A DNA stretch of 64,000 nt. Source: Alphaproteobacteria bacterium. GTDB taxonomy: Bacteria; Pseudomonadota; Alphaproteobacteria; UBA2966. Of the stretch, positions 17,311-22,833 are shown piece by piece. The DNA is taken from positions 194,131 to 258,130 of the forward strand of contig OZ241357.1 in assembly GCA_965200265.1 (NCBI GenBank), given 5' to 3'. A model generated the notes under the pieces. It searched no databases and was not told the DNA's origin. It worked only from the letters and a program-made list of their open reading frames with translations. Each line of letters begins with the position of its first letter. The stretch's first letter is position 1. Position numbers and translations under genes: made by a program.

Positions 17311-17761
17311 CTCTCGATTCCCTTCCGGACGACCCAGGATGCGTTTCCGTCCGCGCCTCGGTCCCGCCCCGACGGAAGCCCGCAGCGCGGATGCCGAAAG
17401 CCATCCTATTTCTTTCCGCGCGCGACGGAAAGCGCCACCCGGCAGTGTCCCGGTTTGAAATATGGCGCGCCGGGCGAGCTTGTGCCGGCTATGCGCGCAT
17501 GGCGCTTCGCGCCGCTGCGAACCAGGAAATTTCCAACCGGGGCGCTACCTACGCATAAGAAGGACAGCTGGATCGTCGTGAATTTCGGGCCTTGAATTCG
17601 GCGCGCGACAACCCATATTCTTCACATGTCGCCCAAAGGGACGGCCGAGTGCGGCCTCCGGGGATATCCAGGATGCGATGTCCCCGCAGGTTCGGCATCG
17701 AGCCGAAGCTCCGCTGGTCCCGGCGGGTCGATTGACGCAACCCTGCATCCGGGAGGCCAAT

Positions 17762-20700
17762 ATGGAAATGCACCAAGACACGACCGTGGCGGTTCTCGTC
17801 GCCACGGCCGATCGGCCGACTCTGCTGACGAGCCGGGCTCTTCCGTCGATCACGGAACAGTCCCGGCCGCCGGACCGTGTGGTCGTCGTCGACGATTCGA
17901 CCGCCGACGCGACCGAACGATTGATCCGGGATTGGCACCCGCCGGGAGTCGACGTCGAATTCCTGCGTAACCGGCGGACGAAAGGCGCGGCCGGCGCATG
18001 GAACTCCGGCATCGATCAGCTGCTTCGGACGGGCGGCGATCCCGATCGGCTCCATGTCGCGATTCTCGACGACGATGACCGGTGGGACCCCCGCCACCTG
18101 GAGGCGTGCCTGGAAGCCGCCGAGACCCGTGGCCTCGATGTGGTCGCGGCGCCTTTCCGGCGAATCGAGGAGGGCGCCGCGCCGCGCTTGACGCTACCGC
18201 CGCCGAACCTCGACGCGGCGGACTTTCTGGTGGGCAATCCCGGCATCCAGGGCAGCAATCTGGTCGTCCGCCTGAGCGTGCTGCTCGAATCCGGGCTGTT
18301 CGACGAGTCGCTCGCGAGCTGCACGGACCGCGACCTGTGCATCCGCATCGCCGAGTTGCCGGGCGTGCGCTACGGCGTCACTTCCGAGACGACCGTCGAT
18401 CATTTCGCCTGCGCATCGCGGCCGCGCCTGTCCACGCCCGGATCGGCCGCCAAACGGGAGGGGTTGGACCGCTTCTGCCGCAAGCACAGCGGCCGCATGT
18501 CGGAGGACCAGCGGAAAGAGTTCGGGGATCGGGCATCCCGGTATTTCGGATGGACGGAACCGAAGGCCGCAACTGCAACCGCAACCGGCAAGGCCGCCTT
18601 CTCGTCCGCTCCACCCCGGTCCTCGGCTTCCGGTCCTGCGCCGCATCTGATCGTCGGCGTGATCGCGGATACGGAGCGGCTCGAAAACGTGGACGGCCTG
18701 CTCGTTGATCTTCGCGGCCTCGCCGAAGACCCTGAACTCTCGGGCCTCGACGTCCTTGTCCTGGAGAACGGCCGGGGCCGCGCGTCCGACCGGTCGCTGC
18801 GCGGTCTGGTCGAGCGCGAGCGTATGGAAGGCTCGCGGGTCCATCTCGTCGACCGTGCGCGGCACGTCGAGGACGCGAGCAACGGGCCGGTTCCCGACGG
18901 CGGGGCGGGAGAGGGCCGCAGGCTGGCCATAGCTCCCGCCCGAACGGTCCTGCAATCGTATCTGTATGCGTTCGCCAAGCGCCGTCCCGGCGCCGTGGTC
19001 TGGATCGTCGACGACGACATGCGGCTGGATCCGCTGATGGCGGCGGACGACGGCCGGCTGATGAGGCGGCGGCCGGACGTCGCGCCTTTTCTGCATGAGC
19101 TTCGTCGGCGACATGCGGGGGGTGAGCTCGATATCGTCATCGGGGCGTATACGGGCGCACCTCCGCTGCCGTTCGCGGCGACCGTGCGCGTGCAACTGGT
19201 CGATCTCGCCGCGTCGCTGCACTGGCTGATGGAACAGGACCCGCGGGCGCCGCTGCCGGATCGGAGTGCGGAGAACGCGGACCTGCGATCCGGCCGGCGC
19301 GACTACTACTACGACCTTTCGCGCAAGGAAACGGACCGCTTGGAAGCGCCGTTCTGGATCGTTCCCGCATTTCCGGACGAGATCGTCGGCGAAGCATTCG
19401 AGCGGATTTCCAGGACGGCCGAACGGATCCTGGCCGGGGAGCAAATCTTCCGGCCCCTCGCGGTCGAAGCCGGCATCGACCCGCTGGGCTCGCTCGGCAA
19501 AGGGTTCCAGCGCGGCGGCAATACCTTCGTGCTGGATATCGAAGCGCTGCGGCTGGCGCCCAACCCCTCCCCGGCCGTCGGCGGGCGGCCGAGCCGGCGT
19601 TCCGACATGATCTGGGCGCTGCTTCAAGCGCACTGTTTCCGCCGGCGCGTCGCCTCCATGCCGTTCCCCCTCTATCACGATCGCTCCCATGTTCCCGTCG
19701 ATGAGCTGGACACCGAGCGCGTCGTGGACGACATCCGCGGCTACGCGACGTTCTCCGCGCTCGACGAGATGTCCGGCGCGTTCGAGGCGGCGGACGATCT
19801 CGGCTTCACCCTCGTCCAAGGAATGACCGAGGACTTCACCGCCCGCGTGCGTAAATATCTCGAAGAACGCTTGGCGGCGTTTCGCCTGTCGTTCTACCGC
19901 GTCCGCGGCTTGATGCGCGTCCTGCGCCGGCTCGTGAACGACAAGGAGTCCTGGTGGGGCGGAGAACGGCACGCTCCTGCCAGGACGCGGCTCCTGGAGT
20001 TCTGCGACCGCCTGGATCGGTCATACACGATGGAGGTCCTGGACCGCATCGAGCGGGGAGTCAGGGAACTGGAGAATCGTGAAATCCGCGAGTTTCTCGC
20101 CCGGCTCCCGGAAGAAATAAAGGAGCACCGCGAACGGCTCTCGCAGTTCCCGATTCTGGCGCGGAGTCTCGAGAGCGAGAGGATCGCCAACGCCAAGGCC
20201 GTCGCTGCGCGGCTGGCCGGGCCCGTCGACCCGCTCGCGGTGCTGGGAAGCGGTATGGAAGGGGTGGCGTTCAGCGACGGAGCGCGTGTGTTCAAGGTTT
20301 TCGACCACTGGACACAATCTGACCGGGTGGATGCTCCGGCGTTTCTGCGCTCTCTCGTGGGTGCGTGGAAGGATACGCGCTGCCTCTACCCGATCCTCGA
20401 TTTTCACGAGGCGGGGCATCGCGCGGTTCTGGTCTATCCCTACGAGGCCAGCGAACCGTATGCCGGCGGCCACGGACCGGGGATGGTGGAGCTTCTCACC
20501 GAATGCCGACGGTACGGCATCGTCTGCCGCAACCTCTATCCCGCCAATCTGCGTGTCGTCGATGGACGGGTCCGGCTGATCGATTACGGCTCGGACCTCC
20601 GCCCCCTCCATGACGAACGCGAATTCACGGCGATGTGCCGGCGCGCCTGGCTGTGTTACCGGTGGGCCAATCGCTCCGACCTCAAGCGGATCATGCGCCG

Positions 20701-21526
20701 GGCGCTGGACGATGCCGGCATCCCCGAGCTGGAGGGGTTCGAACGGTTTCACGAAGCGGTCCGGCGGATGGCGGGGCTGCATGAGACGCCCGAGGACGTC
20801 GTGCTCGGGTTGGCCGGGCGGCCCGCGCACGTTCTCGATTACGGGTGCGGAAGCGGCCGACTGGCCAGGGTCCTGGCCGACCGGGGCGCACGGGTCCTGG
20901 GCTACGACCCCGACGGTGCCTATGGAACGCGGTGGGAGTCGCTTTGCGCCGGAGCCGGCAGGCTGCGGTTCACGCGCGACCGGGACGAGGCGCTGACGGC
21001 CGGCCCGTTCGATCTCGTGATCTGCCGCCGCGTTCTGTGCACGGTCGAGGAAGAGGAGGAAATGCGGGCGATCCTCCGCGATTTGCGGGCCGTGGCGGCC
21101 GAGCACGGCCGGGCGATCATAGCCGTCTGCGATCCGCATTTCACGTTCGGAGGCCCGACCCCGGAGGCCGATCGCGAACTGCCGCCCGGCGCCTGCTACG
21201 AGAGCGTGTTCGTATGGCGCAAGCGCATCCGGGCGACGGGCCGGACACGCCGCGACGTGCATCGGCCCGAGCGGATGCTGCGGCGCGCGTTTGCCCGCGC
21301 GGGCTTCGCGGTATGCCGCCGCGTGGAGACGCCGACCATCGACCTGGAGTGCTTCGAGCCGGCGTCGGACCTTCTGGCGTTCGAACTCCGGCCCCTGGCG
21401 CCGCTCATGGGCGAGGTCGCACTCCTGGTCAAGGCGGGCACGATGGAACCGATGAACGCGGCGAAGCCGCCGGCGCGAATCGCGGCGGGGCAAGGGATGG
21501 AATCCGACGCCGGGAACCGGCAATGA
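17762..21526 (+). CDS. 1254-aa multidomain protein: GT2 glycosyltransferase + second GT-A-like domain + protein-kinase-like domain with degenerate catalytic loop + class I SAM methyltransferase
   Basis: ATG 17762 is preceded by GGGAGG. Approximate domains in window coordinates: GT2 17783-18488 (VAVLVATADRPTLL...VVVVDDSTAD...ILDDDDRWDP); GT-A-like 18635-19778 (VVWIVDDDMRLDP); kinase-like 20225-20708 (GSGMEGVAF, VFKVF, CRNLYPANLRV, IDYGSD); MTase 20795-21428 (VLDYGCGSGRLARVLADRGARVLGYDP...FDLVICRRVL). Third codon positions are visibly less GC-biased than in neighbouring genes. Confidence 0.8.
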   Translation: MEMHQDTTVAVLVATADRPTLLTSRALPSITEQSRPPDRVVVVDDSTADATERLIRDWHPPGVDVEFLRNRRTKGAAGAWNSGIDQLLRTGGDPDRLHVAILDDDDRWDPRHLEACLEAAETRGLDVVAAPFRRIEEGAAPRLTLPPPNLDAADFLVGNPGIQGSNLVVRLSVLLESGLFDESLASCTDRDLCIRIAELPGVRYGVTSETTVDHFACASRPRLSTPGSAAKREGLDRFCRKHSGRMSEDQRKEFGDRASRYFGWTEPKAATATATGKAAFSSAPPRSSASGPAPHLIVGVIADTERLENVDGLLVDLRGLAEDPELSGLDVLVLENGRGRASDRSLRGLVERERMEGSRVHLVDRARHVEDASNGPVPDGGAGEGRRLAIAPARTVLQSYLYAFAKRRPGAVVWIVDDDMRLDPLMAADDGRLMRRRPDVAPFLHELRRRHAGGELDIVIGAYTGAPPLPFAATVRVQLVDLAASLHWLMEQDPRAPLPDRSAENADLRSGRRDYYYDLSRKETDRLEAPFWIVPAFPDEIVGEAFERISRTAERILAGEQIFRPLAVEAGIDPLGSLGKGFQRGGNTFVLDIEALRLAPNPSPAVGGRPSRRSDMIWALLQAHCFRRRVASMPFPLYHDRSHVPVDELDTERVVDDIRGYATFSALDEMSGAFEAADDLGFTLVQGMTEDFTARVRKYLEERLAAFRLSFYRVRGLMRVLRRLVNDKESWWGGERHAPARTRLLEFCDRLDRSYTMEVLDRIERGVRELENREIREFLARLPEEIKEHRERLSQFPILARSLESERIANAKAVAARLAGPVDPLAVLGSGMEGVAFSDGARVFKVFDHWTQSDRVDAPAFLRSLVGAWKDTRCLYPILDFHEAGHRAVLVYPYEASEPYAGGHGPGMVELLTECRRYGIVCRNLYPANLRVVDGRVRLIDYGSDLRPLHDEREFTAMCRRAWLCYRWANRSDLKRIMRRALDDAGIPELEGFERFHEAVRRMAGLHETPEDVVLGLAGRPAHVLDYGCGSGRLARVLADRGARVLGYDPDGAYGTRWESLCAGAGRLRFTRDRDEALTAGPFDLVICRRVLCTVEEEEEMRAILRDLRAVAAEHGRAIIAVCDPHFTFGGPTPEADRELPPGACYESVFVWRKRIRATGRTRRDVHRPERMLRRAFARAGFAVCRRVETPTIDLECFEPASDLLAFELRPLAPLMGEVALLVKAGTMEPMNAAKPPARIAAGQGMESDAGNRQ

Positions 21527-22833
21527 GAAGGAACACGGTCGCGATCGTCGGGTCGGCCGGGACCATATCGCGCGAGCTCCGGCACACCGTGGAGGCGTTG
21601 GCCCGCACCTTGTGCGACAGGGGCTTCGATCTCGTGACGGGAGGCATGGACGGGGTCATGCGCGCCGCGGCGCGGGGACACGGCCTGTCGTCAAACGGCG
21701 CCAATCTCGTTCATGTCGAACCCGGCTGGGGACGCGCCTGGGAGCGTAACCCGCACCCGGCGAGCGTCGTCAGAACGGACCTCGGATCGATGAGGAACCA
21801 TCTGGTGGTCCGATCGGCGGACCTCGTTGTCGCCGTATCCGGTGGATCGGGCACCCTGAGCGAGATGGCGATCGCCTGCCAGGAAGGAAAACCGGTCGCC
21901 GCGCTACGGGGGTCGGGCGGCTGGAGCGACAGGCTGGCCGATACGACCCTGGATCGACGCCGCCGTACGGCGACCGTGACGGGCTGCGATACGGTGGACG
22001 ACGTCGCGGCATGGGCCGATCGACTCCGGCCGGAGGGGGTGTACGCGGGGCGGGTGAACCAGGGTTTCTATCCCCTTGAAGTGCCGGCCTTGCACCGCAT
22101 GTACGAAGGAGCGCCCGACGAACATCACCGGATGCATCTGCGATACGGGATGTCGATTGCGAAGTCCGATCTCGTGCGTCGACTGGAGCGGTTGAACCGA
22201 AGGGTCGAGTCGTGGAACCGGAAGCATGACGCCACGACCGTCGCCCTGATCACCTTCGACGATGGCTGGAAGGACGTGACGCGCCTCGTCGCTACTTTCG
22301 ACAATCTCCCCTGCCTTTGTCCGGTCCTGTTCGTGGGCGAGAACCATTTCCGGGAGCCGTTGCGGCCGCTCCCGCTACAGAGGCTCTATCGCCACTGCAC
22401 GGCTCACGGATTGGATCCGGAGGATTTGGCGGCACTCCGCCGCGTGACCAGAAGCCGGTTGAAGTCCTTGCCCGAGGCCGATCAGCACGCCGCCCTGGAC
22501 AGCCTCGGCATCGATGCGATGCTCGACCCGGAGTGGTTGCTGAACCCGGAAGACATCGCGCGTCTGAGGTCCGCCGGCTGGATCGTCGCATCGCACGGTG
22601 ACCGCCACGAAGACCTGACCTGCCGGGCGGGCCTGGGAGACGAGCTCGCGCGCCTCGCCGAGTCGATCGAAAACCGCGGGCACATGCCCTGGTTGGCATG
22701 GCCCGAGGGACGATGGTCCCGATCGTCGTGCGAAAATGCCCGTGTGGCCGGGTTCCGCCTTCAGTTCGGTCTACGCACCCAACCGTGCGGACGGCCGTGC
22801 GAAGGTATGGTGACGAGAACGGTCTGGAAATGA
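21523..22833 (+). CDS. fusion protein: LOG/SLOG-like Rossmann nucleotide-binding domain (TIGR00725-like) + NodB-type polysaccharide deacetylase
   Basis: ATG 21523 overlaps the stop of the upstream gene as ATGA. N-terminal half VAIVGSAGTISRE...VTGGMDGVMRAAARG...VVAVSGGSGTLSEMAIA fits the LOG/YpsA-like SLOG fold. C-terminal half ITFDDGWKDV...HGDRHEDLT carries NodB deacetylase motifs (D-D and His-His). Confidence 0.75.
   Translation: MRRNTVAIVGSAGTISRELRHTVEALARTLCDRGFDLVTGGMDGVMRAAARGHGLSSNGANLVHVEPGWGRAWERNPHPASVVRTDLGSMRNHLVVRSADLVVAVSGGSGTLSEMAIACQEGKPVAALRGSGGWSDRLADTTLDRRRRTATVTGCDTVDDVAAWADRLRPEGVYAGRVNQGFYPLEVPALHRMYEGAPDEHHRMHLRYGMSIAKSDLVRRLERLNRRVESWNRKHDATTVALITFDDGWKDVTRLVATFDNLPCLCPVLFVGENHFREPLRPLPLQRLYRHCTAHGLDPEDLAALRRVTRSRLKSLPEADQHAALDSLGIDAMLDPEWLLNPEDIARLRSAGWIVASHGDRHEDLTCRAGLGDELARLAESIENRGHMPWLAWPEGRWSRSSCENARVAGFRLQFGLRTQPCGRPCEGMVTRTVWK

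Follow-up and report, generated by a model that had tools for sequence, protein, structure and literature searches.

What does a protein-kinase fold do inside a multi-enzyme when its catalytic aspartate has been replaced by asparagine? The question is raised by one open reading frame (ORF) in a 64,000-nucleotide stretch of alphaproteobacterial DNA (contig OZ241357.1 of assembly GCA_965200265.1; hereafter the window, about 69% G+C). The ORF list and translation place this frame at 17678–21526 (+) and give a protein of 1282 amino acids (aa) which, with Pfam matches added, comprises a family 2 glycosyltransferase (GT2), an unknown 'DDD' domain, a linker, a kinase-like domain and an S-adenosylmethionine (SAM)-dependent methyltransferase (MT). 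Pfam and NCBIfam recognise nothing between the GT2 and MT domains. A preliminary description of the window had placed a protein-kinase-like domain in this interval, with CRN in place of the HRD of the catalytic loop, and had predicted either a pseudokinase or an atypical phosphotransfer mechanism. That prediction stands, and it is sharpened here by an asparagine that recurs across a whole family, by near-invariant Mg-nucleotide residues and by the strongest constraint in the protein. From the sequence evidence, we put the probability that the domain is a nucleotide-binding pseudokinase, positioning or regulating the neighbouring catalytic modules, at about one half.

A minimal protein-kinase fold within a multi-enzyme

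The domain spans aa 831–1031 (20168–20770 (+)), as delimited by an AlphaFold2 (AF2) model, a Foldseek search of the Protein Data Bank (PDB) and an hhalign comparison with protein kinase A (PKA). In the AF2 model, built from a 51-sequence alignment (predicted local distance difference test score, pLDDT, 96.3; predicted template-modelling score, pTM, 0.91), the order of secondary-structure elements describes an N-terminal helix, a five-stranded N-lobe with one helix, a hinge and a short helical C-lobe. The fold lacks an activation segment and ends about 60 residues after the DYG motif, which makes it a minimal kinase fold of about 190–200 aa. This model replaced an earlier one from eight sequences (pLDDT 67.7), whose PDB matches were already all kinases.

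With the 51-sequence model as query, Foldseek matched, at E ≤ 1e-3, at least 1595 PDB chains. All 50 that were listed are kinases, protein kinases except for one aminoglycoside kinase, and they include PAK1, CaMKII, CDK1/2, TTK, PknS, Rio2 and APH(2'')-Ia; query-normalised TM-scores range from 0.5 to 0.56 and identity to the listed kinases from 11 to 20%. Sequence comparison leads to the same fold. Most matches of a single-sequence phmmer search of the PDB were eukaryotic-type protein kinases (ePKs), with marginal E-values and one stray non-kinase match; CRN was aligned with HSD/HRD and DYG with DFG. The 51-sequence profile reached TTK, CK2, a bacterial Ser/Thr kinase and Aurora at E of about 4e-5, together with one spurious PPR-repeat match, and hhalign of this profile against PKA gave a probability of 96% (E 4.7e-9). 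Neither the isolated domain nor the window protein matches the Pfam families Pkinase (PF00069), APH (PF01636) or ABC1 (PF03109) at E ≤ 1, and NCBIfam has no match for the domain.

Taken together, the profile alignments and the structural model confirm that the segment encodes a genuine minimal protein-kinase-like domain inside a multi-enzyme. Every motif quoted in the preliminary description is reproduced by translating its span, 20225–20708 (+), and the kinase-like fold that it proposed is borne out by each of these searches and by the model. Its location was right and its boundaries were too narrow: the folded domain, at about 20168–20770, has one additional N-terminal helix and, past 20708, the last C-terminal helix together with the tail of the helix before it.

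An asparagine in the column of the catalytic aspartate

The hhalign comparison with PKA places the active-site landmarks in register, and the glycine loop, VFK lysine, hinge, CRN and DYG described earlier align as claimed. The Gly-rich loop G857-S-G-M-E861-G (20246–20263 (+)) pairs with PKA G50-T-G-S-F-G, with Glu861 at the position of PKA Phe54. Lys873, the β-3 lysine of VFK (20294–20296 (+)), corresponds to PKA K72, and VYPYE (20432–20446 (+)) pairs with the hinge. In the catalytic loop, C950-R-N952-L-Y954-P-A-N957 (20525–20548 (+)), residues C950/R951/N952 pair with PKA Y164/R165/D166, which puts the Asn952 codon (20531–20533 (+)) at the position of the catalytic aspartate; further along, Y954 aligns with K168, P955 with P169 and N957 with N171, the Mg-binding asparagine. 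The DFG equivalent is D969-Y-G-S-D973 (20582–20596 (+)), in which D969-Y-G (20582–20590) corresponds to PKA D184-F-G. At the position of the α-C glutamate, Ser892 lies opposite PKA E91, in a low-confidence stretch of the alignment.

The substitution of HRD by CRN is thus found both in the column of PKA D166 and in that of the aspartate retained by a sister clade. Were the asparagine an alignment artefact, with the true aspartate a few residues away, the domain would be an ordinary active kinase, and the 11–20% identity to known kinases falls in a range where misalignment does occur. However, phmmer, the profile search and hhalign all put N952 on the HRD aspartate, with P955, N957 and D969 in register, and relatives within the family carry aspartate in exactly this column, followed by K-P-x-N. 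A catalytic base supplied from a shifted position was also looked for, and no alternative acidic residue occurs in or beside the catalytic loop: the stretch IVCRNLYPANLRV contains none, and the next one, D962, is not conserved in the family. We regard an ordinary kinase as very nearly untenable.

Two further residues of the window domain stand out. Arg959 (20552–20554) occupies the position of PKA Leu173, on the hydrophobic floor of the adenine pocket; the same position is arginine in 69/133 members of the asparagine type and likewise in the sister clade, and judging from the alignment it could change nucleotide preference. Tyr954 is encoded by TAT (20537–20539), one nucleotide away from CAT/CAC. 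Histidine stands there in every related locus in which the loop was read, and no sampled member has tyrosine; the residue is either lineage-specific or a sequencing error.

Asparagine as the norm of a large, unannotated family

An exhaustive hidden Markov model (HMM) search with a trimmed alignment of the domain recovered 357 representatives at E ≤ 1e-3, 91 of them at E ≤ 1e-30. Representatives are clusters at 50% identity, and 357 is a lower bound for the family. Residue counts were taken over the 150 best representatives, with denominators that vary by column.

The catalytic aspartate position is asparagine in 133 of 147 representatives, the others having aspartate (10), cysteine (3) or glycine (1). 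By this count, asparagine at the catalytic position is the family norm and not a one-off of the window. At the position of PKA K168, histidine is found in 106 of the 133 asparagine-type members and tyrosine in none. The residues expected to hold Mg-nucleotide are close to invariant, namely the β-3 lysine (134/135), the Mg-binding asparagine equivalent to N957 (146/148) and the aspartate (152/153) and glycine (153/153) of the DFG motif. In the glycine loop the first and second glycines are kept in 104/110 and 109/110 representatives, respectively, and the glutamate at the PKA Phe54 position in all (110/110). The second aspartate after DYG, equivalent to D973, is present in 117/152.

The family extends over Alpha-, Beta- and Gammaproteobacteria, Myxococcota, Planctomycetota (Phycisphaerae), Dehalococcoidia and Actinomycetales. 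The closest loci, with 73–78% identity in the domain, come from alphaproteobacterial metagenome-assembled genomes (MAGs), including Defluviicoccus and Albidovulum. Candidate carriers that can be grown are Pseudoalteromonas donghaensis HJ51, with WP_162898086.1 on plasmid NZ_CP032092.1, and Rubrivivax sp. A210. No match was found in the phage collection, and IMG/VR yielded one contig (L027), a close relative of a Phycisphaerae locus. Many members are 1200 or 1700–2000 aa long, with the domain near residue 800–1000.

No Pfam or NCBIfam model covers the family. Pfam scans of 51 members gave five weak Pkinase matches (best E 0.008), one weak APH match and one weak ABC1 match, no tested member reaching the Pfam kinase threshold; we found no description of the family in the literature. 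The member on a Pseudoalteromonas plasmid is annotated by PGAP as 'glycosyltransferase family 2 protein'. Exact-sequence look-up found neither the window protein nor its downstream neighbour in the protein collection, and word-indexed protein searches retrieved only 7 and 19 short fragments as homologues, some with frameshift-like tails. Several public metagenome gene calls for close homologues (P0002, P0004, P0005 and P0006) are likewise short fragments whose ends run into out-of-frame-looking sequence. This gene, long and high in GC, is thus often fragmented when metagenomes are assembled or their genes predicted, and the family may therefore have been overlooked.

A likely derived state under purifying selection

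The aspartate-type members carry a canonical D-[VL]-K-P-x-N loop. Seven full-length ones group together in a distance tree, adjoining three cysteine-type members, and one aspartate-containing protein, P0068, nests within the asparagine clade. The aspartate-type clade shares with the window domain the GxGxEG glycine loop and the PYxGG, DYG and MxxRA motifs. It differs in its canonical loop and in its architecture, which consists of an N-terminal kinase, an unannotated domain X, a GT2 and a histidine phosphatase, without an MT (e.g. P0143, P0120, P0154); this clade, too, is uncharacterised. Because the sister clade keeps D-x-K-P-x-N and ePKs in general have aspartate, the sequences make it likely that the asparagine form is derived and the aspartate form ancestral. 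The two clades are set apart by polar positions at which the aspartate type has D, K and Q and the asparagine type N, H and R; the last of these lies in a C-lobe helix (window R988) taken to be the α-F equivalent. Within the asparagine clade, the asparagine is conserved in 100% of members.

To gauge constraint, the window gene was compared with five alphaproteobacterial orthologues over five domains by the ratio of nonsynonymous to synonymous substitution rates (dN/dS). In 5/5 pairwise comparisons the kinase-like domain ranked below the other four domains in dN/dS (0.14–0.18, against 0.21–0.48 elsewhere), values of which the ranking alone is meaningful, dS being near saturation. Amino-acid identity to the orthologues agrees with this ranking. 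By these measures the kinase-like domain is not a decaying remnant, and the asparagine form appears to be fixed under strong purifying selection.

In four aspartate-type proteins (P0143, P0144, P0120 and P0154) the kinase domain, a GT2 and a branch-1 histidine phosphatase occur in a single chain, to which P0144 adds a radical SAM domain. The combination of kinase and phosphatase in one chain hints that the ancestral pathway ran through a phosphorylated intermediate.

A proposed nucleotide-binding pseudokinase or a possible atypical transferase

A pseudokinase is defined operationally as a kinase fold without the VAIK lysine, the HRD aspartate or the DFG aspartate, and the window domain falls under this definition through its missing HRD aspartate. 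In the reading that we favour, the domain is predicted to hold ATP or a related nucleotide with Mg2+ through the GxGxEG loop, Lys873, Asn957 and Asp969; binding is argued from the fact that every Mg-nucleotide ligand is kept under strong constraint. With the general-base aspartate lost (Asn952), ordinary base-assisted phosphorylation of a hydroxyl group is predicted to be absent or vestigial only. Such phosphorylation is unlikely because the aspartate is indispensable in WbdD, where D351A/E abolishes activity (PMC3482155), and in Klebsiella O7 ORF6, where D441A does so (PMC11231755). The domain would then provide ligand binding, positioning or allosteric control to the GT2, the 'DDD' domain and the SAM-dependent MT, within a soluble multi-enzyme that would cooperate with the SLOG/LOG-like protein encoded downstream on a substrate that is probably sugar- or ribose/nucleotide-derived. 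We infer the nucleotide binding, the absence of catalysis, the scaffold or allosteric role and the nature of the substrate.

Several observations weigh against this reading. Asparagine is near-absolute even though aspartate is one nucleotide change away, and no other domain of the protein has so low a dN/dS; these features would fit an active site of altered chemistry just as well. A number of predicted pseudokinases, among them SelO, SidJ, POMK and CASK, reportedly proved active with unusual chemistry. To judge from its place in the glycine loop, at the PKA Phe54 position, which is also that of CDK2 Tyr15, Glu861 could serve as an alternative base. The polar changes specific to the asparagine clade make the predicted site more electropositive, which would suit an anionic acceptor that needs no base. 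Lastly, ATP binding is a prediction only, because no acidic residue is conserved in the α-C helix across the family representatives and Arg959 sits at the adenine floor.

The main rival reading is an active, atypical ATP-dependent transferase, in which either Glu861 would act as the general base or the acceptor would be anionic and require none. In the base-free version, the acceptor would be a phosphate or carboxylate on a sugar-phosphate, a nucleotide or an ADP-ribose-type molecule, and Asn952, His/Tyr954 and Arg988 would steer it and stabilise the transition state. The near-invariant Mg-nucleotide ligands and the invariant Glu861 are consistent with such an enzyme, as are the complete conservation of asparagine within its clade, one mutation away from aspartate, the strength of selection and the added positive charge. 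Glu861 also sits where the glycine-loop residue Y230 of WbdD is essential and contacts the acceptor (PMC3482155), and the partner SLOG/LOG-like, NADAR and RibA-NADAR families process nucleotides and ribose phosphates (PMC9503650). However, Glu861 is equally invariant in the aspartate-type clade and is thus not a compensating replacement, and the accompanying histidine, missing in about 20% of asparagine-type members and replaced by tyrosine in the window, is not essential. Asp-to-Asn mutants of studied kinases, moreover, lose activity 100- to 10,000-fold. We consider an atypical transferase possible but rather unlikely. Sequence alone does not decide between a dead scaffold and an atypical enzyme.

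As a pseudokinase, the domain would represent a large and phylogenetically broad bacterial family of such proteins, for which the sister clade, with its Asp and Lys, is a natural control that makes the fate of a kinase fold after loss of its base directly testable. If it is active, it represents a new catalytic solution for the kinase fold. Either way, the genes for the multidomain protein and for its SLOG partner make up a conserved two-gene unit, which databases annotate no further than 'glycosyltransferase family 2 protein'.

Comparison with known kinase-fold proteins

HER3 ('HRN') and the JH2 domains of JAK kinases ('HGN') are ATP-binding pseudokinases in which asparagine replaces the HRD aspartate while the β-3 lysine, the Mg-binding asparagine and the DFG aspartate are kept. 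The nucleotide-binding pseudokinase proposed here has the same residue pattern and is likewise embedded beside active catalytic modules. In contrast to these proteins, it is bacterial and smaller, with no activation segment, no APE motif and a C-lobe of only about 60 residues, and it is fused to glycosyltransferase and MT modules instead of a second kinase. It also has an invariant glycine-loop glutamate and no recognisable α-C glutamate, and it shows no specific sequence relationship to them.

The preliminary description had considered either a pseudokinase or an atypical mechanism unusual for a domain between glycosyltransferase and MT modules. A kinase beside MT and glycosyltransferase modules is in itself already known from WbdD (PMC3482155) and O7 ORF6 (PMC11231755); the asparagine form is new. 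In WbdD of Escherichia coli O9a and in O7 ORF6, a kinase fold adjoins a class I SAM-dependent MT in a glycan-assembly protein (PMC3482155, PMC11231755). The resemblance is closest for Klebsiella pneumoniae O7 ORF6, ordered MT, kinase, carbohydrate-binding module, coiled coil, GT2 and GT2, which has GT2 modules in the same chain and a kinase domain that is likewise invisible to domain databases (PMC11231755). Both proteins differ from the window protein in that the catalytic aspartate is present and required, and in that the MT precedes the kinase, whereas in the window the kinase-like domain precedes the MT. They also possess a coiled-coil ruler, and their genes belong to O-antigen loci that include an ABC transporter, in contrast to the window gene, which has a SLOG partner and no export genes among the ORFs scanned.

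The compact bilobal fold without an activation segment recalls the Rio2 and APH families, from which the listed fold matches include Rio2 and APH(2'')-Ia. APH-type enzymes have a D-x-H-x-x-N loop, which the N-x-H-P-x-N loop of the present family resembles; Rio2 and APH enzymes differ in always keeping the catalytic aspartate. Against this background, what is new is a kinase-fold family, large and unannotated, in the dominant clade of which Asp and Lys have given way to Asn and His.

Architecture of the host protein

The GT2 core of the window protein covers aa 53–166 (17834–18175 (+); Pfam PF00535, E 9.8e-17). It is followed by the 'DDD' or 'mid' domain, an uncharacterised segment of about 380 aa (aa 320–700; 18638–19777 (+)), which was delimited in an alignment of 11 orthologues and has 60 invariant columns among them, including the motif W-x-x-D-D-D-x-R-L. 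The 'mid' domain has no Pfam match and no PDB match by sequence or profile. It is probably catalytic, and its DDD motif allows the guess that it may be GT-A-like. The linker (aa 700–830; 19778–20167 (+)) is the least conserved segment of the protein by both identity and dN/dS, with 50–63% identity to close orthologues against 61–78% for the kinase-like domain and with the highest dN/dS (0.28–0.48). Downstream of the kinase-like domain lies the class I SAM-dependent MT (aa 1046–1212; 20813–21313 (+)), matched by Pfam PF13489 and related models and carrying motif I, VLDYGCGSG, at 20831–20857 (+). Its PDB matches are generic and include WbdD at E 3e-3. A hydrophobicity check of the 1282-aa protein found no transmembrane-level segment or membrane anchor, which indicates a soluble protein.

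The order found most often across the family is GT2, 'mid', linker, kinase-like domain (Asn, His), MT, domain X and GT2, with an optional deacetylase or histidine phosphatase; the window protein is a short form that ends after the MT. Orthologous ORFs in alphaproteobacterial MAGs align across aa 1–1260 of the window protein. We rejected the idea that the window gene is a frameshifted fragment of the orthologues of about 1800 aa: the extra C-terminal 520 aa of the orthologue at locus L001 are a further GT2 module without a window counterpart, and locus L005 shares the short form and the downstream gene. A subclass with the order GT2, kinase-like domain (Asn type), 'mid' and linker has no MT, the Pseudoalteromonas plasmid protein being an example. 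The existence of this subclass weakens the idea that the change from Asp to Asn was tied to acquisition of the MT.

This architecture raises the question of whether the domain is the kinase half of a chain terminator of the WbdD type. In such a scheme the N-terminal modules would polymerise a polyprenol-linked glycan, and the kinase-like domain and MT would cap it with methyl-phosphate, or with methyl alone if the kinase is dead, as in ABC-transporter polymerase-terminator systems. Glycosyltransferase modules, a linker, a kinase fold and a SAM-dependent MT do share one polypeptide, as in O7 ORF6 and WbdD (PMC11231755, PMC3482155), and the MT has its weak match to WbdD (E 3e-3). However, the aspartate that is essential in both proteins (D351 and D441) is missing, no membrane-anchoring segment is present, some asparagine-type members have no MT (e.g. 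the Pseudoalteromonas plasmid protein), and WbdD is not among the 50 listed fold matches or the 60 listed profile matches of the kinase-like domain. What is conserved beside the gene is a SLOG-domain partner, and relatives occur within defence or mobile islands. The locus argues in the same direction. The 29 long window ORFs scanned with Pfam encode housekeeping functions, such as β-oxidation, DsbD, an amino-acid ABC transporter, aconitase and CcmF; the only ABC components among them are of the branched-chain amino-acid type, and none is a wzm/wzt-type exporter, an initiating transferase or a sugar-nucleotide gene, several ORFs in the 42–64 kb part lying outside the scan. The window is not an O-antigen locus, and a role in chain termination is improbable.

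The SLOG partner and genomic neighbourhoods

The downstream gene (21523–22833 (+)) encodes a SLOG cluster-4 domain, a LOG-like Rossmannoid fold (Pfam PF18306, E 2.7e-28), and a weak match to polysaccharide deacetylase (PF01522, E 1.8e-6). Its start codon overlaps the stop codon of the multidomain gene in the ATGA at 21523–21526. In 15 of 25 genome loci from several phyla (L005, L009–L013, L015–L017 and L019–L024), the orthologous gene is immediately followed by a SLOG part. Other members, such as P0139, carry the deacetylase as part of the multidomain protein, an arrangement that points to a functional connection between the multidomain and SLOG genes. NADAR and SLOG/LOG domains have been described as ribosyl N-glycosidases, or as sensors of nucleotide and ADP-ribose derivatives (PMC9503650).

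Genes of conflict systems recur near the gene pair. Genes for a DISARM-like DrmD helicase and DrmMI methylase lie beside it in four Phycisphaerae loci; the records for these and for the Dehalococcoidia locus below cover L020, L021 (about 13.9–20.4 kb), L023, L015 (2–5724) and L014 (247–9736 and 12793–20376). The adjacency is variable, as the IMG/VR contig L027 has no DISARM genes in the 4.5 kb after the gene pair. In a Dehalococcoidia MAG, HmaB, HmaC, a GHKL ATPase, a C5 DNA methylase, an AAA_16/HEAT giant protein and LmuB surround the kinase-like/MT/GT2 protein. Near the Defluviicoccus orthologue, a 1424-aa protein combines NADAR, SLOG and two YAcAr domains (L004, 15513–19784 (−)), and Albidovulum has a partial homologue of its C-terminal part that does not cover the NADAR domain (L007, 3–806 (+)). 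That NADAR genes and genes of the DISARM or Hma type turn up repeatedly beside family members hints at a connection with nucleotide-based conflict systems; the associations with NADAR genes and defence islands are leads from a handful of loci and not statistics.

A broader proposal would combine these leads with new kinase-fold chemistry, for example an ATP-dependent modification of an anionic acceptor (a ribose-phosphate, a nucleotide or an ADP-ribose derivative), either base-free or with the glycine-loop glutamate as base. The kinase-like domain would then act amid an unrecognised soluble glyco-modification system of GT2, 'DDD' domain, kinase-like domain and MT, with or without a second GT2, deacetylase or histidine phosphatase. 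This system would pair with SLOG/NADAR-type nucleotide-processing proteins and would lie, in several lineages, within defence or mobile islands. Such a scheme is speculative and rather unlikely.

Two loci add further neighbours. A MazE/AbrB-like antitoxin ORF directly follows the Defluviicoccus gene. On the Pseudoalteromonas donghaensis plasmid (L026, 16074–19191 (+)), the genes after the family member encode a RibA-NADAR fusion, an asparagine-synthase-like protein and an arylamine N-acetyltransferase.

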